DNA of 64,000 nucleotides, from positions 1-64,000 of IMG/VR virus record IMGVR_UViG_3300032303_001800, one strand, 5' to 3'. A program made the translations under genes and the position numbers. Origin of the DNA: a virus (taxonomy: Duplodnaviria; Caudoviricetes). The notes below the pieces were generated by a model that worked only from the letters and a program-made list of their open reading frames with translations, was not told the origin of the DNA and did no database searches. Below, one piece after another: positions 2,069 to 58,529 of this stretch (its first letter is position 1; each line of letters starts with the position of its first letter).

Positions 2069-2684
2069 TTTACTACCTTCTTTCATCTAGGTACTATGAC
2101 GATACACACTCTATCGGGTCATGTCAAGTCATACCTTCCGATTTTTTTTCGGGGGGGGCAAAAGTACCTTCTAGGTCATAGCACTCGACAGGATAGCCCT
2201 AAGTCAAGGCACTAGGATACACCCCTCATAGCCCCATACGAGTCATCAACATAGTAACCATAGAGAGAGAGGATACTAAGGATAGAAAGCATTAGATAGG
2301 TATCTAAAGGGGTATGGAGAGATGCCATACTCGATGCGGTAGCACAATGGCAGTCAGATGTCAAATACATTGTTATTGGATAATGAGTTAAAAGCAGTTG
2401 TGAAGTCATCGTAAAGTCACGCTACCACGCCCTCGTCTGCCTCGCGTACGCGCACGATGCACCACCAATGCACCATTATTCTATTCTATTTTCATCGAAT
2501 ACATTGTTTCATCAGAAAGTTTCCACGAAAAATGGGCGGTTTCCCCGCAAGCGTAACGAAAAAGAAAAGTTTGCGCGATGACCCCCTAAATAGCGGCAAA
2601 TCGCGCAAGTGCGCGATGCTCCAAAACAAGCCAAAAGAAAAGCCCCCACCAGCCAAAGCCGATAGGGGCAAATCTAGGGGATGC

Positions 2685-2978
2685 TTACTTATTGCCTCTG
2701 ATGAGGTGACTGATTGCTGTACCGCCCTTACCTGTCATTACTTGCTTGATAGGCTTAGAGGTGATGTAGCGGAAACCTTCGAGAGCATCTAGGGCGTGAG
2801 TCTTTTTTAACGCCCATTGACGGATGCCCTTGATGTCCCCATCTTCCTTCATCGTTTCGTACTCCGCCTGTTCTTCGGGTGTCATCGTATCAACATCGAA
2901 AAGCACCATACCAAACGCTTCTCCGGTGTTCCCATTGTTGTCAATGTAGAACATACGATTATTAACTACTGTTGCCAT
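2685..2978 (-). CDS. Hypothetical protein
   Basis: 97 aa, GGAAT RBS, CGCG palindrome upstream at 3048. Confidence 0.65.
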   Translation of the reverse strand: MATVVNNRMFYIDNNGNTGEAFGMVLFDVDTMTPEEQAEYETMKEDGDIKGIRQWALKKTHALDALEGFRYITSKPIKQVMTGKGGTAISHLIRGNK

Positions 2979-3268
2979 TGTTATTCCTATCTATGTGTTG
3001 TAAATCCTTACCCCAGAACCCTACCAGACCGAAATGAAATCTGTCAAATCGCGCTTGCGCGATACAAAAGTTCATCAGAAAGTTCCCACGAAAACTTCGG
3101 AACTCCGTAGCACACCTGTTTAACTTTGTCAATCATCGCGTATGCGCGATGACGCTATGCGCGATGCTGGGGGGAGAGGTAGCGGGAAACCCACTCACCA
3201 TCCCTTTCGGGGATGATGAGTGGGCGGGCAGAAAGGTGATGCCACTTATTTCCCTGACCTTTTCCCCT

Positions 3269-4672
3269 TTACCGCCTACCGCGTTTGCGGATGGCTTCGA
3301 CCTCACGCCCTACCCTGCCGTAGTAACGCTTATTAACGCTTGCCTTAGCGGGCTGTTTTAGGGCTTCGATAGCCCTTTCGGTGTCCGGCACTTGGATAAT
3401 GCCGTTTCGCCAAAGCATCTTGGCTACGATTTCCGTCAAATCATCGCTACCCCTATCGGTGGAGCCGGTGACTTGTCCATCGCAGACCCAAACAATAGGC
3501 TCGTTGCCCTTCTTGATAGAGATGGCAAAGTCTAGGGCGGGAGCATCTACACCGTTGCCAACATTGGATAGGTTCGCTAGGGCTTCGGGGGCTACCCGCT
3601 TACCATCCCTGACCAACATGAAAGCGTTAGGCTTGTTGGTCTTGTCGTGCGGGAGATGCGAGTAGGCAAAGACGGTGGCATTAGGCGCGTGGTCTAGGAT
3701 GCGGTCTAAGTCATCGCTATCCAAACTCATTGAGCCTGAAATGTCAATCACCACGATACCGCCCTTAGCCTTGCGCTTGATGGCAAAGATGCGCCTTTCG
3801 CTATCGGTGATTAGGCGGGATGGATACCGCACCGCACCGCCACTATTTATCGCCCGCTTCTTGGCATGGATGTTGCCCTTGCTACGGATGCTAAGGGGTA
3901 GGTCTGTTTTCCAAATCAGGGGAGCGAACACATCTGCCCCGCTACCCACTTCGTAGCGAACCCCGCCCTTGCCGTAGAACTCGCCTACCGGCATCTGCGC
4001 TTCGCCTAGTAGGTGCTTTTCTACCTCTTTAGCCAACGCTCCGGTGTGAGCCACAAAACCGTAGGGGGCTTCGATACCGTCATCGCTTAACTCATAAATC
4101 TCACCGTTGGCGAGAGTATCGGCATCGTGCCATTTCCACGACTTTTTCATTTTCGCCTGAATAGCCCGCACTTCGGTTGCCCACTCCGGTTGCCCGCCCG
4201 CCTTAAGCCCTGATGCGAACTTGGCGAACGCCTTAGTACCGGCTAGGGATGCTCCGGTAAGGATGGCTTCATCGTGAGCCTTGCGAGTACCGCGTTCTGC
4301 TAAGTCCTCGCCCGCTTGCTTTTCGTAGCCGGTAACGATTTCGGTAGTGTCAAAACCGCGACCCGATGAAACGCGGTTAAGACGGTACTGCTCTACCGCC
4401 ATTAGGGTCTTTTCCCCTACCCCGCGCTTATCTGCCACAGCCGTAATCGCTTCACTACTAAGGGGCGAGATGTTGGCTCGCACCATCTCACGCCCGCGTA
4501 GTACCCGCGCCGTTTCACCATTAGCGGGTGTGCTAACGGTGCGATTGGCAAAGTTGGTACTGCCTTCGCCATCGCTAACTTTCCAGCCCGCTATTGGCTC
4601 GTAAGTCTGAACATCCCGCCGAACCGCTAAAGCGATTTCGGGGTATGCCACTACTGTCTCTTGCTTTTCCAT
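3269..4672 (-). CDS. VWA (von Willebrand A) domain protein, CobT-like partner of a MoxR ATPase
   Basis: MIDAS-like VVIDISGSMS and VWVCDG motifs in the C-terminal third; adjacent to AAA+ gene; start refined to MEKQET. Confidence 0.85.
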   Translation of the reverse strand: MEKQETVVAYPEIALAVRRDVQTYEPIAGWKVSDGEGSTNFANRTVSTPANGETARVLRGREMVRANISPLSSEAITAVADKRGVGEKTLMAVEQYRLNRVSSGRGFDTTEIVTGYEKQAGEDLAERGTRKAHDEAILTGASLAGTKAFAKFASGLKAGGQPEWATEVRAIQAKMKKSWKWHDADTLANGEIYELSDDGIEAPYGFVAHTGALAKEVEKHLLGEAQMPVGEFYGKGGVRYEVGSGADVFAPLIWKTDLPLSIRSKGNIHAKKRAINSGGAVRYPSRLITDSERRIFAIKRKAKGGIVVIDISGSMSLDSDDLDRILDHAPNATVFAYSHLPHDKTNKPNAFMLVRDGKRVAPEALANLSNVGNGVDAPALDFAISIKKGNEPIVWVCDGQVTGSTDRGSDDLTEIVAKMLWRNGIIQVPDTERAIEALKQPAKASVNKRYYGRVGREVEAIRKRGRR

Positions 4673-4849
4673 GTTCTTACCTTTCATAAGAAACTTAGTC
4701 ATTTAACTAAGTGATGAAACACTACCACATCCCACGCCCACCGATGGGAACATCGCGCGTGCGCGATACCAAAAATCTTGCGCGATGATACCATCATGGG
4801 CGAAATGAAGGGGCGAGGTCTTGCGACCCCGCCCCGACAGTTCGGGCGA

Positions 4850-5572
4850 TTAACTCGCCGATGCTCGCAAGGCATCCACGACAGCCTCACCACGATGCTC
4901 GCCAAAGGAGAGGCGTGCGGCTCGTTCGGTGTCCATCTGCGCTTCGAGAGTAGCGAAAGCGTAGAAGGCTCGGATGGATGCCCTACGGCTTGGCTCGGCG
5001 GTGATTACTGCCGATGCCACGACCCGCAAGCGTTCCGGCAAAGTCATCAGAGCGTTCGGGTGCGGGGCGTTGATTTCGAGAGCCACAGGAAAGCGGTCAC
5101 GCAAAGCCACCGGCAAATCGTCAGGATGTTCGATGTTACTAGTCATCACGACAGAGAAACCATCCAACGGCTTAATGACTTCGCCGGTAGGTAGTTCCAA
5201 AGTTGCCGATGCTTCGCTATCGGTCATCGCCAACAGAAGGGATGAAACATCGCCGGATGCCTTGTCACACTCGTCAATAACGAGGCGTGCGCCCTTAGTT
5301 CCATTACCCATCCATGCCTTCGATGCGTATCCCAAAAGGTACTCAAAGCCACCGTTAGCGTTCGGCATCCATGAGCCGGTTACATCTGCGCTCGTCATTT
5401 CTTCGGAGCAGATAAGACGGTGACTACCGGCTTCGTTGATACCCATAGTAAGACCACCATAGGTCTTTCCGGTTCCGGTTGGACCAAAAAGGATAATACG
5501 GTTAATACCCGCATTGACTACATCCTCAAAGTCCTGCCAGCATTGTGCCATAGGCAAGTTATTGTTTTCCAT
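4850..5572 (-). CDS. MoxR/CobS-like AAA+ ATPase
   Basis: Walker A GPTGTGKT, Walker B LVIDECD, MTSN sensor, ALRDRF arginine finger. Confidence 0.9.
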   Translation of the reverse strand: MENNNLPMAQCWQDFEDVVNAGINRIILFGPTGTGKTYGGLTMGINEAGSHRLICSEEMTSADVTGSWMPNANGGFEYLLGYASKAWMGNGTKGARLVIDECDKASGDVSSLLLAMTDSEASATLELPTGEVIKPLDGFSVVMTSNIEHPDDLPVALRDRFPVALEINAPHPNALMTLPERLRVVASAVITAEPSRRASIRAFYAFATLEAQMDTERAARLSFGEHRGEAVVDALRASAS

Positions 5573-5931
5573 TATTACGACTACCTTTCTAGTAGTTGGC
5601 TTCGGGAGTTTCCCTTAGCCGATGAAACAGTACCACATCTCTTAGCACTTAGCAAATCACTTCGCAAAGAACTTCGATGGGTAGAACCCTACCACATCCG
5701 AAATCAAAATCGAGGCACATCGCGCGTGCGCGATAGAAAAAAAGTTGCGCGATAAGAATGCCCTTCACAAACTTTCCAGAAATCTCCGAGAGTTTTTGCT
5801 TCTACCTCAAAGAAAAACAGAAATCAAGCATCGCGCTTGCGCGATGTACGCACGCGCGATGTTCCTGCGCGATGACGGCGGGGTAGGCAAAAAAATGGAG
5901 CGAGCCGAAGCCCGCCCCATCTTTCCAGCCA

Positions 5932-6357
5932 TTACCACCAACTATCGTAATAGACTTCGTAATCACCGGACATCGCCTTGCGAGCCTCGGCAATAAACTT
6001 GAGGTCATCTTCCCTATCTTCCGGTTGGCTCTCACCGAAGAAAAAGCCTTCAGTAGAGGGTAGTGCCTCGCCCAGCACCGCGCTCTCTAGTTCCTTGAGG
6101 TCATCCCAAGTAAGTCGGATAGGCTGACAGTTAAAGCCCTGCTCCGCATGGTAGCCCTGCGCCGATGCCTTCTGATAGAATAAATCTTCCATCCAGCCCT
6201 GAAGGTTAGGGTGCTTACGCCAATAAGAGATTTGGACATAACTCTCTGTCGTAATCGTGTCGTTCTCACCCACTTGTTCGATGCTCTCACGAACATAGGA
6301 GAAATCGGTGTTTGCCTTGTTAGGGCGTACTGCGTATGCGTATTGGTCAAGACCCAT
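5932..6357 (-). CDS. Conserved phage hypothetical protein (MGLDQY...YWRKH type)
   Basis: MGLDQYAY N-terminus, YWRKHPNLQGWM, GFFFG and YYDSWW end resemble a recurrent phage family; start refined. Confidence 0.75.
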   Translation of the reverse strand: MGLDQYAYAVRPNKANTDFSYVRESIEQVGENDTITTESYVQISYWRKHPNLQGWMEDLFYQKASAQGYHAEQGFNCQPIRLTWDDLKELESAVLGEALPSTEGFFFGESQPEDREDDLKFIAEARKAMSGDYEVYYDSWW

Positions 6358-6468
6358 ACTTTCCTTTCGTCTAGGGAGTTTCCCTATCAACATCCATCTT
6401 ACCAGCCAAACCCCAAATCGGTCAAATCGCGCGTGCGCGATGCCTAAAACCTTGCGCGATACTGCCCC

Positions 6469-6684
6469 CTACTCCTCGATTTCGGTGTAGTTGCTCTGAA
6501 TACTGCGAGCCAGCAAGCGAACTTGGCTGATGGTGTATCTTTCTTGGTCATCACTAAGGTACTCAAACACCTCTGTAATCTCCTGCGCTGGTTCGCTGGT
6601 GGCTCTGCTGTAAGCATTGAGAGCGTGTTGGATAATAGTTAGTTCTTGGCTGGTTAGTTCTACTTTGTATCTCCACATAGTCAT
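6469..6684 (-). CDS. Hypothetical protein
   Basis: 71-aa ORF inside a repeat-bounded cassette. Confidence 0.6.
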   Translation of the reverse strand: MTMWRYKVELTSQELTIIQHALNAYSRATSEPAQEITEVFEYLSDDQERYTISQVRLLARSIQSNYTEIEE

Positions 6685-6784
6685 ACTCTATCTTATCTCA
6701 GCCCGCCGAAAAGAGCATCGCGCGTGCGCGATGTCTTGACAGGGGGCAAAGAAATGGGGGCGAGCCGTAGCCCGCCCCCAAGTC

Positions 6785-7045
6785 TTAGTAGTTGGTCTTA
6801 GCCAACTCGTAATGCTTCGCTACCGCTAGGGCTTTTCGTTGAGCAAGCACCGTCTTGCGCTGTTCGATGAGCAACAGGAACGGATAGACAAACAGATACC
6901 CGATGAGTACCGATGTCGCAACATCCCCATAGTGCCACCACTTATCCAGCGTAATGCCAAGCGTTTCCTGACCGCGAGAGACTACGCCGGTACAGAGCGT
7001 AACCGCCACACAGAGAGCCACTAGAACCTTCATGCGGAACTTCAT
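6785..7045 (-). CDS. Small membrane protein
   Basis: Two hydrophobic stretches; coupled to the 7045..7278 gene. Confidence 0.65.
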   Translation of the reverse strand: MKFRMKVLVALCVAVTLCTGVVSRGQETLGITLDKWWHYGDVATSVLIGYLFVYPFLLLIEQRKTVLAQRKALAVAKHYELAKTNY

Positions 7046-7278
7046 TATTCACCATCCTCATCATCGAAATCGTCATCCTCAAAGCGTTCGCTTTCGAGAG
7101 CGACATCAAACCACTCCATAACGGTACGGAGCAGAGCATCGTAGTCTCCAGCCGTAGCCTCGGCGTGGAACTCACTCCACTCATCGTAGCGACCCGCCCG
7201 CTTCATAGCGGTAGAGCAAGCCCCAAGTATGGAGAAAGCGTTACCATCGCCCAACTCCACTTTCATTTTTTCTGACAT
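7045..7278 (-). CDS. Conserved phage hypothetical protein, acidic tail
   Basis: GNAFSILG...GDYDALL pattern; FEDDDFDDEDGE C-terminus; GAAAGGTAG RBS. Confidence 0.75.
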   Translation of the reverse strand: MSEKMKVELGDGNAFSILGACSTAMKRAGRYDEWSEFHAEATAGDYDALLRTVMEWFDVALESERFEDDDFDDEDGE

Positions 7279-7549
7279 AACTACCTTTCTTGTATGGGTG
7301 TTTCCCTTACGATGAAAACACTACCACAAAACACACCAAACTTTTGACACATCGCGCACGCGCGATAGCAAAAATCTTGCGCGATGACGGTGACACCGGC
7401 AAAGAGAAACCCCCCACCGGTCTGAAAGGGATAAGCGACCAATGGGGGGTGGGGCGGTCGGGGGAAAGAGAGTAACCCCTAACGCCACCTAGAACTTGGA
7501 AAGGTGGGGGGTGAGAAACCTAGTGGAATCCCACCCCCCGATGAAGCGA

Positions 7550-7897
7550 TTAAAACCCTTGTAAAAACTCCTGCGCCTCATCTACGGCATCCTTGATAGC
7601 GATGTCCTCAATGACATGACCGTAGTTCTCATTAAAGAAACTACTAAGCCTACGAAGGATGATTTCGAGGCTAAGCCCCTTAAACCCTACTTCTTGTGGG
7701 ATGTCCTCATGAGCGATACCCTCTACGGCATTAACCATAGCAGAGTGTATCTCCTCTAGCAACTTGACTAGGAAACCTAGTTCGCCCACCTCAAGAGTGA
7801 CATCTATCTTCTCCATAAGAGGAGCATCAACATTACCAAAGTCCTCGTTGATGAACTCAAAGAGAAATGTCTCCTTGTCGTTGTTGTTGTTATCCAT
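7550..7897 (-). CDS. Acidic hypothetical protein
   Basis: Start refined to MDNNNNDK after GAAAGG RBS; the longer ORF call reads through intergenic repeats. Confidence 0.7.
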   Translation of the reverse strand: MDNNNNDKETFLFEFINEDFGNVDAPLMEKIDVTLEVGELGFLVKLLEEIHSAMVNAVEGIAHEDIPQEVGFKGLSLEIILRRLSSFFNENYGHVIEDIAIKDAVDEAQEFLQGF

Positions 7898-8118
7898 CTC
7901 TACTGCCTTTCTTGTCGTATCCCTTACGACAACAATCACTCTACCACACATCGAACCGGAAATGTGGAACATCGCGCGTGCGCGATACAAATGCTCATCA
8001 GAAACTTTCCAGAAATCTTCGAGAAACGCAAGCGTCGCGCATGCGCGATGAAGAAAAACCTGCGCGATGTAAAGGGGAGTTGGCAAGGCGAACACTTGTT
8101 CGCCCCGCCGGTGAATCA

Positions 8119-9021
8119 CTACTCCTCTTCGCCCCACTTCTTGCTTTCGATACCTAGCACTAGGTCGCACGCTTTCTGCGCTCTGCTGGCACTCTTGACC
8201 AAGATTTTCGGGTCATTCTTGAGTACCTTTAGCCACCCTGCGATGTACGCGGTGCTGTTTTCGATAGTGCTAGGAGCGATGCCGGTTTCCGCGCATAGGA
8301 AGGTCGCTGTGAACTCCGCGACTAACTCCTCTTCGCTGTATGTCGCATCGCCAAAGTAGTGCGCTTCGACTACACCTTCGCGTGCTAGTCGGCTCTTGTG
8401 TCCGGTGCTGTGCGCTGTCTCATGGAATAGCGTTGAGTAAAACGCTTCATCGCTTGTGAAACTATCCTGCTTAGGCATCGTCACCGCATCGCTACTAGGT
8501 GAGTAGTAGGCACGCTCTCCGGCAAAGGTAAGGCTAGGCGCTCCGGTGCGGGCGTAGTAGGCATCCACGATGCTCTGCGCTCCTTCGATGATGGCAACAT
8601 CTCCGCGTACCTCTCCGCGCTCCGTTGTCGGCATCTCCTTCTCTACCCACTCCGCTTGCTCCGCGTTAAATACGCTGAAGTAACGCATTACGGCACTCTT
8701 CTTGAGTTTGCCATCCTTGTCGGTAGTCTCTAGTGGTTTCCACAACACTACCGGCGTACTCTTCTCACCCTTCTTGACCTTGCCACCCATCGCTTCTATC
8801 TGCTTGTAAGTTCCCCACCACTTGCTTGTGTATCCACCGGCTATGGTCGCAAACATTAGGAGCATCTTGTTAGTACCGTTGTATGCCTTCTTGCTACTAA
8901 GGCTAGTTGGATACACTCCCGATGTAGTCCACTCCTTACGCCACGCGGGGATGCCACCCTTCTCTAATGCTTCGATGATGCCTTGTGCCACAATCTCGTA
9001 GGGACTCTTTCTCTTTTCCAT
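8119..9021 (-). CDS. ardC: ArdC-like antirestriction ssDNA-binding protein with zincin-like domain
   Basis: N-terminal PAWRKEW...YNGTN...TYKQ...GGKVKKGEK; C-terminal HETAHSTGH, YSEEELVAE, YIAGWL. Confidence 0.92.
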   Translation of the reverse strand: MEKRKSPYEIVAQGIIEALEKGGIPAWRKEWTTSGVYPTSLSSKKAYNGTNKMLLMFATIAGGYTSKWWGTYKQIEAMGGKVKKGEKSTPVVLWKPLETTDKDGKLKKSAVMRYFSVFNAEQAEWVEKEMPTTERGEVRGDVAIIEGAQSIVDAYYARTGAPSLTFAGERAYYSPSSDAVTMPKQDSFTSDEAFYSTLFHETAHSTGHKSRLAREGVVEAHYFGDATYSEEELVAEFTATFLCAETGIAPSTIENSTAYIAGWLKVLKNDPKILVKSASRAQKACDLVLGIESKKWGEEE

Positions 9022-9192
9022 AACTACCTTTCTACCTAGTCACTCTAACTAGGTGCTTTCACCTTACACCCTAGCAGACCGGAACCGGTCGCATCGCGCG
9101 TGCGCGATAACGAAAATCTTGCGCGATGACACCGATGTACCAAAAGAAAAGCGGGGCCGACCTAAGCCGACCCCGCCTCTCGACACCTTCGA

Positions 9193-9351
9193 TTAGATGA
9201 TGTCAAACTCCTTGAGGATGTTGTCAATGTTTCTGTCCAGCAACTCGAAGAGAGCCTTCTTCGACTTCTCATCCAAATGCTCGAAGTCGTACTCGTTGAG
9301 AGCAAGTACGTACTCGTACCACACTCCGTCAATCGTTTCACCCTTTGCCAT
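9193..9351 (-). CDS. 52-aa hypothetical protein (not in ORF track)
   Basis: MAKGETIDGVWYEY...KEFDII; GAAAGGTAG RBS; own cassette. Confidence 0.6.
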   Translation of the reverse strand: MAKGETIDGVWYEYVLALNEYDFEHLDEKSKKALFELLDRNIDNILKEFDII

Positions 9352-9562
9352 TACTACCTTTCATGTTGGCAACCTACCAACTACAACCACATTAGCACAT
9401 CGAACTAACCAAAGAAACGTCGCGCATGCGCGATACAAAAGGTCATCAGAAAGTTTAGGGAAATCTTCCTGAGACACCCGTAACGTGCCACGTGCGCGAT
9501 GAAAATATCGCGCGTTAGACGCATGCGCGATACCCATGCGCGATGACGGCGGGGAATACCCC

Positions 9563-10006
9563 TTATTCCCCCCTCTCGTAGTAGGGGAAGAACTCGAAGG
9601 ATGCGCCCATCTCATCGTGGCTACTCCGCGTGACCCTGAGTGTTCTGTTCTCGAAGTCGTACTCCCAGCGCAGGATGTAGTCTCCGTTGATGCCGAGCAT
9701 GGCTACTAGTCCGTCTGCCGTATCGGTGTGGGCGCTGTCTGCTGTCTGCCGTTGCCATCCCATCCCTTCGGCGTGGATGTAGTAGTAGTCGGTGTCGGTG
9801 AAGTCATCCATCCATCCCTGAACGGTTGTCACGAAGTCGTTGCGGGCGTAGTCCCAGCAGTCTCCATAACACTCCGTAGTGGGCGTAACCGTTACTCCGC
9901 AGGTGTCGCACCTACCGCCGTTCGGTTCGCTGTCGTATCCGACACTACACTCCTCGCACCAATAGCAGGTACAAGTGTTAGTGAGTGTTCCTTTAATCGT
10001 TGCCAT
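9563..10006 (-). CDS. Hypothetical protein with N-terminal Cys cluster
   Basis: CTC, WCEEC, CDTC; GAAAGGAA RBS. Confidence 0.72.
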   Translation of the reverse strand: MATIKGTLTNTCTCYWCEECSVGYDSEPNGGRCDTCGVTVTPTTECYGDCWDYARNDFVTTVQGWMDDFTDTDYYYIHAEGMGWQRQTADSAHTDTADGLVAMLGINGDYILRWEYDFENRTLRVTRSSHDEMGASFEFFPYYERGE

Positions 10007-10163
10007 TGTATTTCCTTTCGTTGGTTGTTACTACAAGTTCCACTCTACACGCTGAGAACTAAAATCGGGGACATCGCGCGTGCGCGATAGCCCCAATCCT
10101 TGCGCGATGCTAGGGGGGGGATACCCCGCGGGGCGAACACTTGTTCGCCCCGCGAGGGTCGGC

Positions 10164-10454
10164 CTAACTCAACTCTTCCAACTCGCTCATCACCGCACGA
10201 ATGTCGGTGGTGATGCTGTCAAGGTCGCTGATGTTGTCGATGTCGCTCTGTGCGCTGTCAAGGTAATCCTTGGCGTGCTCGATGTTTCGCACCGCATCGG
10301 CCAACTCGCTCTGCGCCCCGCTGACATCATCCTCAAGGGATGAGAGGGAGTTCATAATCCCGCCCAATGTTTCACGTGGAACAATCACCACATCCTCACC
10401 CAACAATGCGGGCAACAACTCCAACAACTTCTGTACCGCTTCATCCTTAGTCAT
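10164..10454 (-). CDS. Acidic coiled-coil protein containing an internal parS site
   Basis: Heptad-rich 96 aa; the VPRET peptide is encoded by the parS palindrome. Confidence 0.7.
   Translation of the reverse strand: MTKDEAVQKLLELLPALLGEDVVIVPRETLGGIMNSLSSLEDDVSGAQSELADAVRNIEHAKDYLDSAQSDIDNISDLDSITTDIRAVMSELEELS
10368..10383. promoter_or_regulatory. parS: parS site (ParB binding)
   Basis: TGTTTCACGTGGAACA; matches bacterial parS consensus TGTTNCACGTGAAACA when read on the minus strand. Confidence 0.8.
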
Positions 10455-10600
10455 TATGACCCTTTCCGCTAGGTGCTTTACCTAACAGTTACAACTTACC
10501 AGAAAATCTACGAGGTGTGTCACATCGCGCACGCGCGATAGCCGAAAACCTTGCGCGATGGGGGGAGATTGGGATGGGGGTCGCCCCCCACCCCGCTCCC

Positions 10601-10990
10601 CTACATACTCGTAACCGTGAACCCGATGTAGTCTTCGATGTCAAGGTTAGGGATGAAGATGCGCTTCTTGTAGTCCAACAAGTAGGCGATGGTTTCATCG
10701 TCTAATCCAAGAGTCTCGCCTTCGTCATCCGTTCCACCGGTGATGACGATGTTACCCACCGTGACATCGGTGAGGCCGTAGGAGTCGGACCAAAGAGCGG
10801 TACCGTAGGAGTTTTGCTCCAACCCGTTCAGTTTGCCTTCTTCATTGACCCACATCTCAATACCGGTAGCGGGGAGTCTTACGCACTCAATCCATCCACC
10901 GACACCCTCTTTAAGCATCTCGTAGCAGTTGGAGTTATCGAACTCCACTACCTCGAACACTCCATCGGTGCTGACCTTAATAGCCTTCAT
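10601..10990 (-). CDS. DUF3846-like protein
   Basis: VGGWIECV, MWVNEEGKLNGLEQN, GNIVITG motifs; start refined to MKAIKV. Confidence 0.8.
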   Translation of the reverse strand: MKAIKVSTDGVFEVVEFDNSNCYEMLKEGVGGWIECVRLPATGIEMWVNEEGKLNGLEQNSYGTALWSDSYGLTDVTVGNIVITGGTDDEGETLGLDDETIAYLLDYKKRIFIPNLDIEDYIGFTVTSM

Positions 10991-11195
10991 ACTTACCTTT
11001 CCGCTAGTGAGTTTCACTAACAGCAATCATTGTAGCAGGTAAAAATCCAAACCGCTATTTTTTTTGCGCGATGAATACAAATCCTCCTCAGAGAGTTTTT
11101 GGAAATCTCCACACAGTCAAGCGTCACGCGTGCGCGATGCCGCTATCGCGCACCTGACTTATGCGCGATGACGATGGGGTAAAAAAAAATCAGAG

Positions 11196-11215
11196 TTATC
11201 CACAGGTTATCCACA
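11196..11215 (+). promoter_or_regulatory. Two tandem perfect DnaA boxes
   Basis: TTATCCACA at 11196-11204 and 11207-11215. Confidence 0.8.
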
Positions 11216-11241
11216 GGGCGGGGTTTCCCCCACCCTGCGGA

Positions 11242-11257
11242 TGTTCCACGTGAAACA
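11242..11257. promoter_or_regulatory. parS: parS site (ParB binding)
   Basis: TGTTCCACGTGAAACA, matches consensus; intergenic, 26 bp from the DnaA boxes. Confidence 0.85.
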
Positions 11258-11258
11258 T

Positions 11259-11546
11259 CTACTCCGCTGATGCCAGCAGAGCATTGTAGGTTTCGACTGC
11301 CCACGCCAGCGCCTTTTTACGCCCTGACACCCCGCGCCCAAAGGTGAGCCCGCTGATGTTTTCCGCGCCCTTGAGAGCGGTAAGGTGGCGGGACATCTTC
11401 ATCCCTGGGAACTTGATTTCCATCTCCAGCATGGAGATAACCATCTTTAGGCGGTAGGCATCCATCGCCATTTCGCCGGATACTACGCGGATGCCCGTTT
11501 CATCCTGCTCGACTTGCGAGCCATCGGGGAAGACTACGTTACTCAT
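11259..11546 (-). CDS. Hypothetical protein
   Basis: Start refined to MSNVVF after GAAAGGG RBS. Confidence 0.7.
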   Translation of the reverse strand: MSNVVFPDGSQVEQDETGIRVVSGEMAMDAYRLKMVISMLEMEIKFPGMKMSRHLTALKGAENISGLTFGRGVSGRKKALAWAVETYNALLASAE

Positions 11547-11756
11547 AATGCCCTTTCCGTTCGGTGATTTACCTAACAGGTACATAATACAGAAATTTTT
11601 TGATTGAGGGGTCTATCGCGCACGCGCGATGAAGAAAATCTTGCGCGATGACGGGTTAATATTGTTAAGTCAAGTCGAATCTTGCGCGATGACGTAAGAG
11701 GCAAGGGAAAAGGGAGCGAACAGACGTTCGCCCCCTAGTCCTTGTTGCCCGTTCTG

Positions 11757-11867
11757 CTACTCGCAGTCTAGGCAAGCCATGACCGGCATGAGCCGGTTTG
11801 TGTCCTTAGACCAGACACGGATGACGGTAAGAAAACTACCGACGTAACCACAGATGTCGCACTTCAT
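11757..11867 (-). CDS. 36-aa zinc-ribbon micro-protein (not in ORF track)
   Basis: MKCDICG...ACLDCE; own TTGACT-17-TATTGT promoter and GAAAGGGG RBS. Confidence 0.65.
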   Translation of the reverse strand: MKCDICGYVGSFLTVIRVWSKDTNRLMPVMACLDCE

Positions 11868-11893
11868 TTTACCCCCTTTCCCTTTCTGCTACC

Positions 11894-11922
11894 ACAATAC
11901 CCCGCCCACCAAAAAAAGTCAA
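11894..11922 (-). promoter_or_regulatory. Sigma-A type promoter
   Basis: TTGACT-17-TATTGT with a CGCG half-site just upstream of -35. Confidence 0.75.
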
Positions 11923-12024
11923 GTCGGTTTTTGCGCGATAGGGGAGAAATCTTGCGCGATAATGGCAACTTGACCGGCAGAATGCGGGGGATGCGCCCGC
12001 ATCCCCCGCATCTAGTCTAGAGAG

Positions 12025-12291
12025 TTACCTCTCTAGCACTACGGCATCCGGCGAAAGGGTAAAGCCGGAAAGCCCCTGACGAATAAACGTCTGATGGCGT
12101 GACGTTGTTTGACTGTAATACTGATTGTTGAGATGCGTAACGCTCTCGCCCTTTACTACTGCCATGAGAGTAGAGTACGAATACACGCGGTATTCCCCAT
12201 CGCCCCACATCTCGCCCCGCATTGTGTTAGCGGTGAATGGCTTACGGCTTGCGATGTATTCGCTTGCCTTTTTGTTTGTTACCTGTGGCAT
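12025..12291 (-). CDS. Hypothetical phage protein
   Basis: Start refined to MPQVTN; YRVYSY...YYSQTTSRHQ pattern. Confidence 0.7.
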   Translation of the reverse strand: MPQVTNKKASEYIASRKPFTANTMRGEMWGDGEYRVYSYSTLMAVVKGESVTHLNNQYYSQTTSRHQTFIRQGLSGFTLSPDAVVLER

Positions 12292-12447
12292 GTTTTGCCC
12301 TTTCTCTTTCGATAGTGAAACCTTACCAGAAAATCTAACCAAAAGTAGCATCGCGCATGCGCGATAGACCAAAATGATTGTTTTTTGTTGCGCGATGTGG
12401 TATAGGGAAGTTTCAGGCGGGGTCTCCCCCGCCCTACTCCCTACCGG

Positions 12448-12606
12448 CTAAAGAAACTCAAACGGGTCTCTATCCTCAAACATCTCCTCAAACGCCACGT
12501 AGGGCATCAGCGTAATGTCTCCGTACTCCGCTTCCGCGTCGAGCATGTTCTGAAGGATGCGCTCGTTTTGCTCGCGCTCCCCTTGGCTAATCTCTTTCTT
12601 TGGCAT
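12448..12606 (-). CDS. Small acidic hypothetical protein
   Basis: Start refined to MPKKEI after AAAGGAGG RBS. Confidence 0.65.
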   Translation of the reverse strand: MPKKEISQGEREQNERILQNMLDAEAEYGDITLMPYVAFEEMFEDRDPFEFL

Positions 12607-12756
12607 ATTGCCTCCTTTGCTTGTACTGCTTGATGTGTCCACAATAGCACCCTAATCTTAAATTTTAAAGCATCGCGCGTGCGCGATACAACAATGTGCG
12701 CGATACAACAATGGGGCATTGGGGGATGGGGCGCCCGCACCCATCCCCCCGCGCTC

Positions 12757-12954
12757 CTAATGATGCCAGCGCGTATCTGACACCTTGCGCCGAGTCTCCT
12801 TGTAGGTCTCAATGCGGGTCTCCCAGAAACCAACGGTATCCGATGCGAACCGGTTAGCGATTTCGAGCATCTCCGTAAGGCGGAGGATTTCGGCATCGAG
12901 CCCCGACAGGATGGCTAGTCCCATTTCCTTTGTAAGCGTTAGTGAATCATTCAT
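12757..12954 (-). CDS. Hypothetical protein
   Basis: 65 aa, GAAAGGGG RBS, own cassette. Confidence 0.65.
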   Translation of the reverse strand: MNDSLTLTKEMGLAILSGLDAEILRLTEMLEIANRFASDTVGFWETRIETYKETRRKVSDTRWHH

Positions 12955-13142
12955 TTCGTACCCCTTTCTTAAGGTACCCCTACCTTACTACCTGAAAACT
13001 ACAATAGAAACGTCGCGCATGCGCGATGACGTTAGTCCTAGCAGATTAAAAAAGTTAAGTCAAGTCAATCCTTGCGCGATGGACTCGGTGAGCGACAAAA
13101 AAGCGGGGCGGACATTACGCCCGCCCCGCCCGTTTGATTTGG

Positions 13143-13295
13143 CTAGCCTCGCCTAGCGTTGATGAAGTAGGCATTAGGGAAGATAGAGCGCCCCATTGCA
13201 ATTGCTTGTGGCAGGTCATCCGCCCCCACAAAAAAGTAAGACGAGAAATCTATCTCGCCGATGATGATGGCGTATTCCACCCTGTAAGTTTTCAC
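13143..13295 (-). CDS. 50-aa hypothetical protein (not in ORF track)
   Basis: GTG start, MKTYRVEY..., GAAAGGGG RBS. Confidence 0.55.
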   Translation of the reverse strand: MKTYRVEYAIIIGEIDFSSYFFVGADDLPQAIAMGRSIFPNAYFINARRG

Positions 13296-13418
13296 TTAAG
13301 CCCCTTTCATTTGGCTAAGACCACTTTAGCAGATTTTTTGAGGTAAAGAAACGTCGCGCGTGCGCGATGGTACCAACCCCAGAAAAAGCGGGGCAGGTTT
13401 TACCCTACCCCGCCCCTC

Positions 13419-13577
13419 TTAGTATTGCTTCTCTACTACCTTGACAACCGCCGAAAACGGCGCGTACTCAATACGGCACGCCGTTTCGATGGCAGTTTCG
13501 GCATCGGTAGATGGTGTGGTTATGGTGATGGTGTGACCACCATCCCGCTTGAGGGTAATCTCGAAAATGCTAATCAT
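13419..13577 (-). CDS. 52-aa hypothetical protein (not in ORF track)
   Basis: MISIFEITLKRDGG...EKQY, GAAAGGGG RBS. Confidence 0.6.
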   Translation of the reverse strand: MISIFEITLKRDGGHTITITTPSTDAETAIETACRIEYAPFSAVVKVVEKQY

Positions 13578-13804
13578 TGTAGGCCCCTTTCATTGGACTA
13601 GGACTATTGTAGCAGGTTTTGAGCAGTCTGGAAGCATCGCGCACGCGCGATACATAAGCCCGTCAGAAAATTCCCAGAAATCTTCGAGACAACTCCCCTA
13701 CGCATGCGCGATTATGTCTGCGCGATATGACGCACGTGTATTCGTGCGCGATGCCGACCGGATTAAAAAACTGAGAGCGAGCCGATTTCTCGACCCGCCC
13801 CGTT

Positions 13805-13918
13805 TCAGTTTTTACGCTTCAGAAACTTTTCGATGCACGCTGTGCAAAAGTCTCCGGCTGTGCTCCGGTTTGCTCCGCATCCCTTGCACTTGTGTTTTTT
13901 GTATCCCTTCGCTGGCAT
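13805..13918 (-). CDS. 37-aa zinc-ribbon micro-protein (not in ORF track)
   Basis: CKGC...CTAC, basic; GAAAGGGG RBS. Confidence 0.62.
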   Translation of the reverse strand: MPAKGYKKHKCKGCGANRSTAGDFCTACIEKFLKRKN

Positions 13919-14068
13919 CTTCGCCCCTTTCATTTGGCTGACTCCATTGTAGGCAGATTTGCCGAAAAAAAGCAAGTTTCGCGCATGCGCGATGGGGGAA
14001 AAGTCTGTTACACTTTGCGCGATGAGGGGGCTGGGTTTGGAGCGGGGGTTTCCCCCCGCCCCGCGCCT

Positions 14069-14239
14069 CTAGTCCTCCTCTTCTTCGATGCTGTCCTCGT
14101 ACTCGACTACGCCGATTTGGTAGGCGATGGGGTCGCAGTCAAAAAGGATTTGGCTGGGGTAAAAGGTCATTGAGCCGATGGAGTAAGTGGGGTAGCACTC
14201 ATCCAGCATTTCGTCGAATCCTTCGTGTCGCTGTGTCAT
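14069..14239 (-). CDS. 56-aa acidic hypothetical protein (not in ORF track)
   Basis: FDEMLDECYP...PSQIL..CDPIAYQIG...EEEED; GAAAGGT RBS. Confidence 0.68.
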   Translation of the reverse strand: MTQRHEGFDEMLDECYPTYSIGSMTFYPSQILFDCDPIAYQIGVVEYEDSIEEEED

Positions 14240-14400
14240 TTTCTTACCTTTCGTTTTTCGGTTTTCCCGATGCTTCTATTGTAACAGAAAAATCTAACTA
14301 ATCAACTATCGCGCATGCGCGATGGCCAAAAACTGTGTTATTGTTTGCGCGATGACGTAGGGGGTCGGGTTTAGGGGCGGGCTCACGCCCGCCCCCGCCC

Positions 14401-14598
14401 CTACTTTCTAAGTTTGAGGATGATGAGCGCCGTAGCGAACGATGCCACCACTCCTAGAGCAAGTGAAACCAACCACACCAGAGCGGGCGCGGTCAAGTCA
14501 CCTACTGCCTTAGTGCTGGCGATGTAGGCAAACGCATAGACGATTACCCCCATGAGCAGAGCGAACAACTTTTCGCCCCTAGTACCTTCGCGTGTCAT
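14401..14598 (-). CDS. Small two-TM membrane protein
   Basis: Two hydrophobic helices; TTGACT-16-TATGCT promoter at 14637-14664; start refined. Confidence 0.68.
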   Translation of the reverse strand: MTREGTRGEKLFALLMGVIVYAFAYIASTKAVGDLTAPALVWLVSLALGVVASFATALIILKLRK

Positions 14599-15081
14599 TG
14601 TTACCTTTCCGTAGGGCGTTTGCCCTAACAATGAACAGCATAACAGGATGAGCGATTAAGTCAAGTATTTTTTTGCGCGATGGATACAAAAGCCCCTCGG
14701 AAAGTTCCCAGAAATCTTTGGGAGAACCTGGCTACGCATGCGCGATTGTATGTGCGCGATTACATGTGCGCGATGCTCGGCGCAGGGGCAAAGCAAAAGG
14801 GGCGGGCTTGCGCCCGCCCCCCTGCCGGTGGCTACTGCCAGAGTTTCCACCAGACCCACCCGCCCCCGATTTGGGCGCGGTCAGAGAAATGCGAGGTGAT
14901 GCGACGGATAAGAGGGCGAACTGCCTTCATTTTAACCCCTTTCAGTTGGTTAGTTACATTGTAGCAGATTTTTTAGACTTTGGAAGCATCGCGCGTGCGC
15001 GATGGACAAAAACTGTGCTAAACTTTGCGCGATGTTAGGGGGGGAGTTGGGGGCGAACACTTGTTCGCCCCGCTCCGCGCC

Positions 15082-15204
15082 CTAGAGCCACACCTCCGCA
15101 ACCTCGCAGGGAGCGCACGCCTCAAGCGTGACGCACGAACGCGAGGCGGGTGAATACACCTCGACCTCGACCGTGGGGGCATCGGCCCCGCAAAAATCGC
15201 ACAT
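15082..15204 (-). CDS. 40-aa zinc-binding micro-protein (not in ORF track)
   Basis: MCDFCG...EACAPCE; GGAAGGG RBS. Confidence 0.6.
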   Translation of the reverse strand: MCDFCGADAPTVEVEVYSPASRSCVTLEACAPCEVAEVWL

Positions 15205-15344
15205 AATAACCCTTCCGCGGGGGAGCATCCACCGCTAGAACCACAATAGCAGGAAAACGCCGAGGTGGGGAAAATCGCGCATGCGCGATGACTTGACACG
15301 GGGCAAAAGAAGAGGGGCGGGTTTCCCCGCCCCTCCCCCGCGTG

Positions 15345-15524
15345 CTACATGTAGTCGCACGCCTCGTTTTCCGCGCCGTGCGTGGATGGGGTGCCCCAAA
15401 CGATTTCGGTGGGGGTGCCATCGTAGAACGGTTCGATGTGACCGCAGGCGGAACAGCGAACGGAAAGCACATCCGAGATGGGGCAAAGGCGTGCGCCCTC
15501 GTCCCCGCAAAATGAACACTTCAT
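15345..15524 (-). CDS. 59-aa zinc-ribbon micro-protein (not in ORF track)
   Basis: MKCSFCG...RCSACGH; GAAAGGGA RBS; TTGCTT-17-TAGACT promoter upstream. Confidence 0.65.
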   Translation of the reverse strand: MKCSFCGDEGARLCPISDVLSVRCSACGHIEPFYDGTPTEIVWGTPSTHGAENEACDYM

Positions 15525-15811
15525 AAATCCCTTTCGTTTTATCGGCTTCGTTACCGATAGGAGAGAGTCTAGTCAGACTATTTAGGGAAAGCAACTATTT
15601 TTTTGCGCGATACAAAAAAGATACAGAAACTTCACAGAAACTTTTCCAGAAAGTTTAGTGCGCGTGCGCGATTGCGTGTGCGCGATGATTTCCGGACAGA
15701 GAGTTTCCCAGAAATCGCGCACGCGGGAGACAATACCGTGCGCGATGGACTCGGCGGGCAAAAAAAAGAGGGGCAGGGCTCACGCCCCGCCCCCCCCTCA
15801 AAGGCTCCCCC

Positions 15812-16030
15812 CTAAAACCATCGGGAGATGCCCGCCCAAAGGCGTAGGGCATCCTCTCGGGTGCGGTAGAGGTGTCCGTCATCGCTCAACGGCTTACCAT
15901 CGGCGCCAAACAGGGTAAGCGTGAAGAAAGAGCCGTGGTCAAACTCATGGCTCGGGTTGTAGTGGCGGTTGATGGTCGCCGTGACCTCACCCGCGGGCGA
16001 AGTGAGAGTGTCAGTCAGTTCGTAAATCAT
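15812..16030 (-). CDS. Hypothetical protein
   Basis: 72 aa; GAAAGGGA RBS; strong promoter upstream. Confidence 0.7.
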   Translation of the reverse strand: MIYELTDTLTSPAGEVTATINRHYNPSHEFDHGSFFTLTLFGADGKPLSDDGHLYRTREDALRLWAGISRWF

Positions 16031-16075
16031 TGTAAATCCCTTTCGTACTCACCGGCATTGTTGCCGATGGTACAG

Positions 16076-16104
16076 AGTTTAGTGAGCGTTTTTTAGAAAG
16101 TCAA
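16076..16104 (-). promoter_or_regulatory. Sigma-A type promoter abutting CGCG palindrome
   Basis: TTGACT-17-TAAACT; the palindrome at 16107-16122 ends 2 bp upstream of -35. Confidence 0.78.
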
Positions 16105-16203
16105 GCATCGCGCGTGCGCGATAGGGGAAAACCCCGATAAACTTTGCGCGATGACGTAGGGTTTGGTTTGGGGGCGAACACTTGTTCGCCCCCGCCCCTT
16201 GCC

Positions 16204-16482
16204 TTAGTCATCCTCTCGCGGGTTGGTGTGGGTGAGTAGGAGTTCGACTAGTGCGGTGTAGGCATCCTCGCTAGGGGAGCACCACGCTAGGCGGGTGTGG
16301 GCTAGGGCGTTCGCCCGCACCGCTTCCGCTTCCGTGGCGTACCAAAAGGCGAACAGGGAGAAATAGCGTTCGCCGTCAGATGCGCTGACCTGAACGCCGA
16401 AATAGGGGTGGGTGTCCTCGGCGTACCAACCCCAATGACGGGGTTCGTTGGTCAAGGTAACTTGGGCGGAAGTGTAAATCAT
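16204..16482 (-). CDS. Hypothetical protein
   Basis: Start refined to MIYTSA; TTGCTT-17-TAGGCT promoter upstream. Confidence 0.68.
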   Translation of the reverse strand: MIYTSAQVTLTNEPRHWGWYAEDTHPYFGVQVSASDGERYFSLFAFWYATEAEAVRANALAHTRLAWCSPSEDAYTALVELLLTHTNPREDD

Positions 16483-16828
16483 TGTAAAACCCTTTCGGTT
16501 GGTGTCGGTATTGTTACCGATGGTACTGAGCCTAGTGAGCAAAAAAGTAAAAAGCAACTATTTTTTTGCGCGATACATTTGTTCGTCAGAATGTTTTCAG
16601 AAATCTCAGCGGGGGCGTTGGGTTACGTGCGCGATGGATTTTGTGCGCGATACATTTGTTTGTCAGAAAGTTTTCCAGAAACATCGCGCAGGGGTTTCCG
16701 TATGCGTGCGCGATACATTTTCTCCTCAGAAAGTTTCCAGAAATCCTCGGAGCGCGCAGGGGTTACGTGCGCGATGCCGATGGCGAACAAGTGTTCGCCG
16801 CAAAAAAGCGAACATTTGTTCGCTTTAG

Positions 16829-16873
16829 TTATCCACAGACTTATCCACAGGCTGTGGTTTATTCTGTGGGTTA
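16829..16873. promoter_or_regulatory. DnaA-box cluster
   Basis: Perfect TTATCCACA at 16829-16837 and 16841-16849; two inverted 2-mismatch boxes at 16853-16861 and 16865-16873. Confidence 0.78.
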
Positions 16874-17055
16874 TTGGATGGCGAACGCTTGTTCGTTTTC
16901 TCCTATTCCTGACTAGTTAAGTCATGTTTCGGGCGGGCGTGCGGGGGTATGCGTTTTTATGCGTGGAGATGTGTTTTTAATCATCGGGCTAGATGTGCGC
17001 GATGTGGCGCGTAGGGCGCGGGATGTGATAACATCCCGCGCCCATCGTGGCGCGT

Positions 17056-17083
17056 GCGTGATGCGTGATGCGTGATGCGTGAT
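17056..17083 (+). repeat. Tandem (GCGTGAT)x4
   Basis: Four perfect 7-bp units. Confidence 0.95.
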
Positions 17084-17088
17084 GCGTT

Positions 17089-17123
17089 GCGATAGGCGCG
17101 GGCGTGATGCCCGCGCCTATCGC
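17089..17123 (-). terminator. Perfect 15-bp-stem hairpin after the 17134..18018 gene
   Basis: GCGATAGGCGCGGGC-GTGAT-GCCCGCGCCTATCGC; no clear U-tract. Confidence 0.55.
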
Positions 17124-17133
17124 GTGCGATGCG

Positions 17134-18018
17134 TTACAACGCTACCGCGTGACCGCGCTTTACCACACGCGATGTCCAATCTTCGACATCTTCGATGTCA
17201 TCCCATAGACCGGCGATGTCTGAGCGATGCGCAATACGCTGTCGAACATCGTTCGACATCGTAACGCTCTCATCGTGGCGGGCAAGGATGGACTCAGCGA
17301 GTGACCGCGCACCGGTAGCGATACCGCGAGACTCCAGATTATCCAGATGCCCTACGGGGTCGCGCCACAATACAGGGCAACCACAAACGCGCACCGCGAG
17401 AAACTTTCGTTCCTCGTTGATGTGCGCGACTGTCTCGCTTTCATCGCGACTCCATGCCGTCATTGGAGCCAACAACATCATCGCGTTGTTATCGTGACCG
17501 CCTGACGCGTAGAGCAGACTGTTTAGCAACAGTCCATCGGCGTTAATAGTGATGATGTTCCATGCGCTCTGCGAATGTTGCGCGTTGCGAATGATAAGAA
17601 CGCCACCATTCGTTAGGAACGATGTCATCTCTGCCAACGATGCGAAAGTGCCACTAGTCGCGATGACATCATCCATGAGCGCGCTTAGCACCTTGTCGCG
17701 CTTAGTGCGTGTTGCCATCTTCACGCGAACATCGTTCGCGGGCGTGATGACATTGACACCCTCGCGCTTTTTGTCTTTCGTGACATTGTCAGAAAGTTGC
17801 GCGATGACTGATGCGATGAACGCGTTAGCGCGATTGTAAGTAGTCATCGCTCCATGAGTGATAACACCACCATCACTAGGCGCGATGTTCGTTCGACAAA
17901 TGTGTCGCTCTGCTATCTCATCGGCGATGTGTGATGCGATGCCGTTAGCGCGTGCCATGTCTCCAATCAGTTTGCGCGTACGGTCGCGGTCTTTCGTGTT
18001 GTTGTTGATGCGTGTCAT
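17134..18018 (-). CDS. Hypothetical protein
   Basis: 294 aa from MTRINNN after GAAAGGT RBS; no motif recognised. Confidence 0.72.
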   Translation of the reverse strand: MTRINNNTKDRDRTRKLIGDMARANGIASHIADEIAERHICRTNIAPSDGGVITHGAMTTYNRANAFIASVIAQLSDNVTKDKKREGVNVITPANDVRVKMATRTKRDKVLSALMDDVIATSGTFASLAEMTSFLTNGGVLIIRNAQHSQSAWNIITINADGLLLNSLLYASGGHDNNAMMLLAPMTAWSRDESETVAHINEERKFLAVRVCGCPVLWRDPVGHLDNLESRGIATGARSLAESILARHDESVTMSNDVRQRIAHRSDIAGLWDDIEDVEDWTSRVVKRGHAVAL

Positions 18019-58219: not shown

Positions 58220-58529
58220 ATTCCTGCCAAGCATCGTCCTCTGAAGTACCTGATGAAAGCCATTTTTTACGGTCTTCCTGCGAGGCTCCGCCCCAGATAC
58301 CATATTCGACTTTGTTCTCCAGAGCGTATTTAAAACATACGTCCTGTACGGGGCAAGTATTGCAGAGTGCTACCGCCTTCTTAGCGAGGTGAGATTTCCC
58401 CTGACCGGGGAAGAAGTTTTCCAGACCGCTATCAAGACAAAGTCCATCAAAATAAAACGAGGGCCTCATGCTGTCGACAAGGCGCATGAACATCAGCATC
58501 TCGTATTCTTCAAATGAACTAGCGCGCAT
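58206..58529 (-). CDS. whiB: WhiB-family transcription factor
   Basis: C...FFP...C.TCPV...C..YAL....GIWGG Fe-S motif. Confidence 0.93.
   Translation of the reverse strand: MRASSFEEYEMLMFMRLVDSMRPSFYFDGLCLDSGLENFFPGQGKSHLAKKAVALCNTCPVQDVCFKYALENKVEYGIWGGASQEDRKKWLSSGTSEDDAWQEFKKD

Follow-up and report, generated by a model that had tools for sequence, protein, structure and literature searches.

Two host-type parS sites, one of them within a coding sequence, and tandem DnaA boxes in a 78-kb tailed phage genome

The virus record IMGVR_UViG_3300032303_001800 (Duplodnaviria; Caudoviricetes) is a complete genome of 78,430 bp with a 123-bp repeat at its ends, and bases 1–64000 of it form the stretch analyzed here (the window). 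Two perfect copies of parS, the chromosomal binding site of the partition protein ParB, were found in it, one inside the gene of a 96-amino-acid (aa) protein and the other directly behind a second gene, next to a tandem pair of DnaA boxes. The coding site has remained invariant in relatives with considerable protein divergence, and the phage lacks recognizable ParB, ParA and DnaA proteins of its own. The sites are most likely loading sites for host ParB and boxes for host DnaA. As to their purpose, we tentatively favour positioning and partition of the phage DNA in the manner of phage phi29. The central elements are the following.

10368–10383, minus strand: parS-2, reading TGTTCCACGTGAAACA on this strand; inside the 96-aa gene, over the last base of codon 24 and codons 25–29 (I-V-P-R-E-T).
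10164–10454, minus strand: gene of the 96-aa protein, with parS-2 inside it; LGEDVVIVPRETLGG, the best-conserved motif of the protein, covers the site.
11242–11257, plus strand: parS-1, a host-type ParB site reading TGTTCCACGTGAAACA; separated by 1 nt from the stop codon of the upstream gene (minus strand) and followed immediately by a GC hairpin.
11196–11204 and 11207–11215, plus strand: two tandem perfect DnaA boxes, TTATCCACA, 11 bp from start to start (TGTGGATAA on the minus strand).

An earlier reading of this stretch from its sequence (the original prediction) had reported parS at 11242 and 10368 and TTATCCACA at 11196 and 11207. All four motifs are present, and the gap of 26 bp from the second DnaA box to parS measured as claimed. 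The 10368 site lies within a coding sequence (VPRET), also as described; rather than standing in free spacer, the 11242 site makes up the base of the upstream gene's terminator hairpin. In the complete genome TGTTCCACGTGAAACA occurs exactly twice, no further site within 3 mismatches of a perfect parS was detected, and both copies match the chromosomal consensus TGTTNCACGTGAAACA over 16 bp. This count was reached in none of 100 shuffles; by our own arithmetic, about 3e-4 matches per genome are expected for the 14 specified parS bases. The DnaA box TTATCCACA has 6 exact copies genome-wide against about 0.6 expected, arranged as tandem pairs (11196/11207 and 16829/16841) and singles (22366 and 75537). 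These observed and expected counts rule out a chance origin of the sites.

The coding site was examined in a nucleotide comparison of the 96-aa gene from eight sequences, namely the phage and seven relatives representing about five further lineages. The parS 16-mer is identical in all seven relatives, down to a protein identity of 60%. Across the gene 131 of 291 sites vary, including 64 of the 96 third positions. Within the parS span none of the six third positions varies, and this is the sole six-codon window without a third-position change (permutation P ~0.001). The longest invariant run of the gene comprises 18 nt (gene positions 70–87), of which parS occupies 72–87. Neighbouring codons of equally invariant residues (D21, V22, V23 and G32) do show synonymous variation, and if codons were drawn according to the usage of the phage itself, this very spelling of I-V-P-R-E-T would arise with a probability of 0.0025. 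The original prediction had suggested looking for synonymous constraint at 10368, and it is there. Judged by this pattern of variation, the coding parS is maintained by selection at the DNA level. At the protein level nine homologues with 60–94% identity were found in the larger protein database, all with V-[P/S]-R-E-T; the viral contigs contained no match to the 96-aa protein. In the two V-S-R-E-T variants (P0014 and P0015) the site would be a perfect palindrome if the serine codon is TCA.

Which protein reads these sites? Profile searches over all six frames of the whole genome gave no match to ParB_N, HTH_ParB, ParA-type AAA_31 or Bac_DnaA, nor to tyrosine or serine integrases. The earlier statement that the window holds no parA, parB or dnaA gene is correct and extends to all 78,430 bp, including the part outside the window, where parAB and integrase genes had been thought worth seeking. 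A phage without ParB, ParA and DnaA suggests that host proteins read the sites, a phage protein of unknown fold being the other possibility. Two WhiB-family genes are present (window 58266–58445, minus strand; genome 68292–68465, plus strand), a family that among 14 control genomes occurred in Corynebacterium only, and the phage RecA is closest to Acidimicrobiia genomes (56–63% identity). Both features point to an actinobacterial host. The pattern TGTTNCACGTGNAACA was found in 82 of 151 genomes of the Acidimicrobiia, the candidate host class with the nearest RecA, versus 1 of 151 for a control pattern. Their parS sites number 1–4 per genome, are usually clustered and comprise the same three variants as the phage sites. 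With the same variants on these chromosomes and no phage ParB, the host ParB would be the obvious reader.

A second phage lineage carries such sites as well. G005, a complete 78.9-kb relative with 65–72% nucleotide identity in the structural genes, contains exactly two perfect TGTTTCACGTGAAACA sites in its palindrome-rich arm, each with a stop codon one base ahead of it and a hairpin immediately behind. Their flanks are unrelated to those of the present phage and adjoin homologues of its genes 4850–5572, 3269–4702 and 5932–6393. The junctions are not orthologous to those with parS in the present phage, which has no parS at the junctions used in G005, and G005 is without the 95-aa gene (the gene upstream of parS-1) and the 96-aa gene. 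By this comparison, the G005 lineage gained parS independently. No DnaA boxes lie near the G005 sites, the sole box cluster of that genome being located at the arm boundary. Thus, parS and DnaA boxes appear to be separate elements that share one junction in the present phage, and parS, as judged from its distribution, is an accessory trait that is strongly kept where present and not tied to DnaA boxes. These data also bear on the idea that the 16-mer only happens to resemble parS and is the target of an unrecognized phage protein or works as a hairpin in RNA. Many early proteins, including the site-linked 95-aa and 96-aa proteins, are without a known fold, and the site is a palindrome within transcripts. 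However, it matches universal parS in 16 of 16 positions, its variation in three phage lineages is limited to two positions that also vary in chromosomes, G005 has perfect parS sites without either site-linked gene, and the RNA stem of the 16-mer itself reads as short and AU-rich. We regard this explanation as most improbable.

The junction at 11.2 kb and its surroundings comprise the following further elements.

11259–11585, minus strand: gene upstream of parS-1, encoding a small conserved phage protein; an open reading frame (ORF) of 108 aa, probably 95 aa from 11546.
11191–11266, minus strand: composite terminator hairpin of the upstream gene, with a GC core stem at 11209–11242.
11181–11189, minus strand: T9 run (A9 on the plus strand), the terminator tail after the extended hairpin and the sole AT-rich tract at the locus.
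11059–11170, minus strand: repeats of the promoter region of the DUF3846 cassette, of the ATCGCGC-N2-GCGCGAT / TGCGCGATG family.
10601–10990, minus strand: DUF3846 gene between the two parS sites (Pfam PF12957, E = 2e-20; phrog_3777).
10130–10151: GC hairpin with a LexA-type box, CGAACACTTGTTCG, 12 nt past the stop codon of the 96-aa gene, in a slot equivalent to that of parS-1.

Read along the minus strand the order is 95-aa gene, parS-1, hairpin, DnaA boxes, T9 run, promoter repeats, DUF3846 gene, hairpin with promoter, and 96-aa gene; the two DnaA boxes sit in a junction of 230 bp. The upstream gene ends with TAG at 11261–11259. Its 95-aa start at 11546 is supported by homologues that align from there and by contig L430, which encodes an identical 95-aa product. 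The AlphaFold model of this protein (pLDDT 89) has three strands and three helices, and no PDB fold match, no informative Atlas match and no Pfam or PHROG match was obtained for it. The RNA from 11266 to 11191 folds as one long hairpin ending at the T9 run (−45 kcal/mol, z = −4.1; none of 200 shuffles was as stable). The first DnaA box lies inside the core stem, which is extended by pairing of one parS half with the second box. Consequently, the junction is best described as a terminator with host-factor sites built in.

Relatives of the 95-aa gene retain much of this arrangement. The upstream protein is 100% identical in L430 and 92% identical in L436, and in both contigs the stop codon is followed, after one base, by parS and then by the hairpin, the boxes and the T run. 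The intergenic parS of L430 is the same 16-mer, and that of L436 departs from it at a single position, one of the two that are variable among chromosomal parS. The DnaA boxes are kept in L430, the first with 1 mismatch, and partly kept in L436; as we read the sequences, the T-to-C change in the first box of L430 is accompanied by a compensating change across the stem. Both contigs have an extra 109-aa gene between the boxes and DUF3846, which suggests that the unit of parS, hairpin and boxes travels with the upstream gene and not with the downstream promoter. L001 is a distant relative in which the ATCGCGC palindrome is missing; between the same two genes it has a hairpin and six DnaA-box-like sites, which end 25 bp ahead of a −35-like hexamer. 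Directly after the stop codon of its 95-aa homologue GTTTCACCAGGAAAC is found (L001:4271–4285), a parS-like palindrome with one extra central base that may be a decayed parS relic. L433 has a LexA-type box behind its 95-aa homologue, where the present phage has parS. Neither the more distant 95-aa homologues (L204–L207) nor the DUF3846 homologues (L330–L348) showed a parS or a box cluster at the matching junction. All seven relatives keep the LexA-type box behind the 96-aa gene; counted from the gene start it lies at 307 nt in six of them and, with the start as called, at 364 nt in L431.

The sites were originally interpreted as an oriC-like signature of a plasmid-like mini-chromosome, in which the DnaA boxes and the A9 run would form a second, host-DnaA-dependent origin and parS the centromere of a LexA-silenced genome. 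parS, DnaA boxes and an AT run do fall within 80 bp here, integrase and par genes are missing, LexA-type boxes occur throughout the arm, and a second DnaA-box cluster exists at 16829–16873. Moreover, P1 oriR and several plasmid origins employ few DnaA boxes as helpers. The phage nevertheless has a replication block at 65.3–67.5 kb, with a phrog_270 initiator at genome positions 65,292–66,266 (L329:6292–7266) and an adjoining DnaB-type helicase. Within the initiator gene lie two 19-bp iterons (65,671–65,708) and a 40-bp AT-rich tract (65,717–65,756) with TAATA-type repeats, and iterons plus an AT-rich tract inside the initiator gene are the layout known from lambda O. By this composition the phrog_270 region is probably the lytic origin. 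The 11.2-kb locus has only two boxes, which are part of the terminator hairpin, and no repeated unwinding element; its one A9/T9 run doubles as the terminator tail, and chromosomal origins have many more than two DnaA boxes. A bacterial oriC with nearby parS shows the same two motifs close together, but here dnaA and dnaN are absent and the origin apparently lies elsewhere. The box-free parS sites of G005 likewise count against a joint function. With an initiator, iterons and a DnaB-type helicase of the phage's own near 65.5 kb the oriC-like reading is weak; the 11.2-kb locus is probably not a replication origin, and the mini-chromosome is improbable. The broader proposal that the phage makes use of host DnaA and ParB fared better, in that the sites are real, non-random, conserved and most likely host-read; the oriC-like part of it was not supported, and the precedent of phi29 had been missed.

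For DnaA boxes outside an origin there is a parallel in T5-like phages, whose first-step-transfer DNA has a conserved array of eight DnaA boxes within its injection-stop region; these boxes were proposed, as a hypothesis only, to bind host DnaA for a non-replication purpose (bioRxiv 10.1101/866236). In both cases a lytic phage with replication genes of its own retains DnaA boxes within non-coding DNA of the arm that is expressed first, which for the present phage is the presumed early arm. The T5 array differs by its eight boxes in a fixed pattern within a long terminal repeat, whereas the two boxes here are fused to a terminator and lie outside the 123-bp terminal repeat. The cluster at 16.8 kb is a better counterpart to it than the 11.2-kb pair. 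That cluster belongs to a large spacer bordering the minus-strand arm (window 16540–17130), which contains three repeat units of about 40 bp, LexA-type hairpins, two perfect and two inverted degenerate DnaA boxes (16829–16873) and a run of GATGCGT heptamers (17048–17080). The G005 box cluster at 30827–30870 is the counterpart of the 16829–16873 cluster.

The position of the sites behind stop codons raises the question of transcription control at the junctions. Host ParB or LexA past the stop codons and DnaA past the hairpin could act as roadblocks or silencers, so that read-through and the next promoter follow the state of the host. All four independent parS placements lie within transcription units, beside a terminator or in a coding sequence. 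LexA-type boxes fill the same slot after other genes, and in L433 such a box occupies the position that parS has here. The DnaA boxes of L001 end close to a −35-like hexamer, and ParB of Pseudomonas is reported to repress parS-adjacent promoters (PMC5521831). On the other hand, the junction already has a strong hairpin followed by a T9 run, the boxes of the present phage are at least ~75 bp from the nearest promoter-like element, and the slot after a stop codon may be only the free space in compact cassettes. We therefore consider control of this kind doubtful.

To our knowledge, phi29 is the only studied case of a phage that lacks a ParB of its own and uses that of its host. Its five parS sites are bound by host Spo0J, which moves the silenced genome into the prespore, and Spo0A boxes suspend its lytic cycle (PMC2731898, PMC9437464). 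Like phi29 (and Nf), the present phage looks virulent, has no ParB and carries several host-type parS sites, with no lysogeny or par genes. Sites for host master regulators may be a further likeness; they lie on early promoters in phi29 and would be represented here by the LexA-type and DnaA boxes of the arm. The differences are considerable, since phi29 is a 19-kb phage with protein-primed replication, five sites and entrapment in the Bacillus spore, whereas the present one is a 78-kb tailed actinophage with two sites, known from sequence alone. Its likely hosts are probably non-sporulating, so the purpose of the sites should differ from that in phi29. The explanation that we tentatively favour is that the parS sites serve as phi29-like positioning and partition (centromere) sites during a deferred infection. 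Host ParB would load at the two parS sites and coat the neighbouring phage DNA, which would give the phage genome a centromere of the chromosomal type. Host ParABS and SMC would position and partition the phage DNA for as long as the lytic programme is delayed. The many LexA-type boxes in the arm suggest that the state of the host might gate the early genes. The DnaA boxes would be a separate element on the 3′ end of the 95-aa gene, possibly a DnaA-dependent regulatory or sensing site and not an origin.

The same sequences could serve as decoys. Replicated parS copies would soak up host ParB, and the boxes DnaA, which would break the partition complex and SMC loading, block segregation, division or re-initiation and so support host takeover. 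Chromosomes of the candidate host class have 1–4 parS, a number that a two-site phage would exceed once its DNA had replicated a few times. Genes of the host-takeover type, such as ArdC anti-restriction, surround the sites, and a carrier state need not be assumed. In E. coli, datA is a precedent for titration of DnaA; it is a small high-affinity cluster of DnaA boxes off the origin that acts by binding DnaA, but it is chromosomal, requires IHF and promotes hydrolysis of DnaA-ATP. Two sites and two boxes would be a weak sink before replication, when early takeover matters, and a dedicated inhibitor protein would act more quickly; phi29, the sole studied case, employs parS for segregation. The sequence itself fits decoy and centromere alike. 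A decoy is in our view unlikely, although a serious contender.

Several observations weigh against partition by host ParB. The protein motif that covers parS-2 is itself highly conserved, and protein constraint accounts for part of the nucleotide invariance. Similarly, the location of the first DnaA box in the terminator stem and the compensated change in L430 mean that constraint on RNA structure explains part of the conservation of this box. As the likely hosts are probably non-sporulating, the purpose known from phi29 is not directly transferable, and the deferred or carrier state of the phage is an assumption within the explanation. Two sites per genome multiplied by many replicating copies would also fit a decoy. 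Finally, none of 29 other relatives contains parS, including the complete genomes G002 and G020 and several contigs with the palindrome-rich arm, which argues for a dispensable, lineage-specific function. These 29 are terminase-based and palindrome-bearing records and mostly fragments, so they bound the distribution and do not refute the conservation.

Partition by host ParB would also set the phage apart from P1, N15 and mycobacteriophages with parABS. They share centromere sites on a non-integrated phage genome, but have their own ParA and ParB and a distinct parS, whereas here par genes are missing and the sites follow the chromosomal consensus. A more far-reaching scheme is a carrier state that does without lysogeny genes and is built from host parts, with LexA (and a phage mini-LexA) as repressor, DnaA for once-per-cycle replication and ParB/parS as centromere. 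We consider it quite unlikely; if true, the orphan host-type parS sites in hundreds of viral contigs would mark a widespread and overlooked "third lifestyle". A role of parS as a "self" mark against SMC-like defence (Wadjet/Mks) was considered as well and set aside, as no evidence bore on the idea.

Host-type parS sites are not confined to these two lineages. The perfect 16-mer occurs in at least 119 viral-contig stretches, many with 2–5 copies, and a ParB_N match was absent from 26 of 28 tested parS-bearing viral records. Mimicry of the host centromere may thus be a general phage strategy. Among the 162 sites listed (L210–L328), 91 are within long open frames, and 21 (13%) follow an ORF of 60 aa or more at 0–1 nt from its stop codon, versus 1.2% of random positions (P = 6e-16), which may only reflect short spacers in compact genomes. 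The flanks of these 21 sites are all different, with a GC content of 31–62%. A protein-primed polymerase, as in phi29, was found in four of five small multi-parS records tested. G041 (L273), G043 (L279), G045 (L283) and G031 (L222) are small viral genomes of 15–18 kb, and inverted terminal repeats are present in two; the four have 2–3 perfect parS sites, a protein-primed family-B polymerase (PF03175) and no ParB, and look phi29-type. A literature search found no published report of host-type parS in actinophages. If partition is indeed their purpose, the parS device of phi29 would recur here in an unrelated, much larger phage of probably non-sporulating actinobacteria. Selection appears to have frozen a centromere site within a coding sequence across about 40% protein divergence, and a second lineage to have acquired such sites independently. 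This bears on how "virulent" phages survive in slowly growing or dividing hosts, or on whether they sabotage chromosome segregation.

The sites are embedded in an arm of uniform build. From about 2.5 to 16.5 kb every gene is on the minus strand, in small single-gene cassettes that each have their own hairpin and a promoter region with the ATCGCGC-N2-GCGCGAT palindrome and TGCGCGATG half-sites. The palindrome and TGCGCGATG (48 copies of the latter against 0.6 expected) mark nearly all junctions in window 2500–17800. The palindrome, which is also repeated in the related viral contigs L006, L026, L041, L052 and L071, resembles an operator through which an unknown regulator would act on the cassette promoters. 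The arm includes the ArdC-type anti-restriction gene and the DUF3846 gene and, in what looks like a virulent actinophage, probably represents the early region. Structural genes start with the terminase at 23.5 kb, and a recombination and replication block at 60–68 kb contains ERF, a YqaJ exonuclease, RecA, an SNF2 helicase, the initiator and the DnaB-type helicase. The terminase is only about 34% identical to those of Arthrobacter phages, so no annotated relative was of use; window 9500–12500 gave zero matches to cultured phages by megablast, and an Rfam search returned nothing. A scan of the 11.2-kb locus with the sigma-70 consensus detected no promoter. As we read their sequences, the cassettes appear to use an extended −10 element resembling TGCTACAAT.

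LexA-type boxes (GAAC-N4-GTTC) occur at window positions 8090, 10135, 11718, 15055, 16176, 16785, 16810, 16883, 18155 and 19108, several of them within GC hairpins a few bases 3′ of stop codons. In the relatives L205–L207 such boxes sit between −35-like and −10-like hexamers. Three perfect TTATCCACA boxes in 12-bp steps, two forward and one reverse, are also present at L349:1940–2415, in the 129,571-bp contig of a large phage that encodes a DUF3846 homologue; the LexA-type box CGAACACTTGTTCG that recurs in the window is found there too. The pairing of DnaA and LexA boxes thus extends beyond this phage group.

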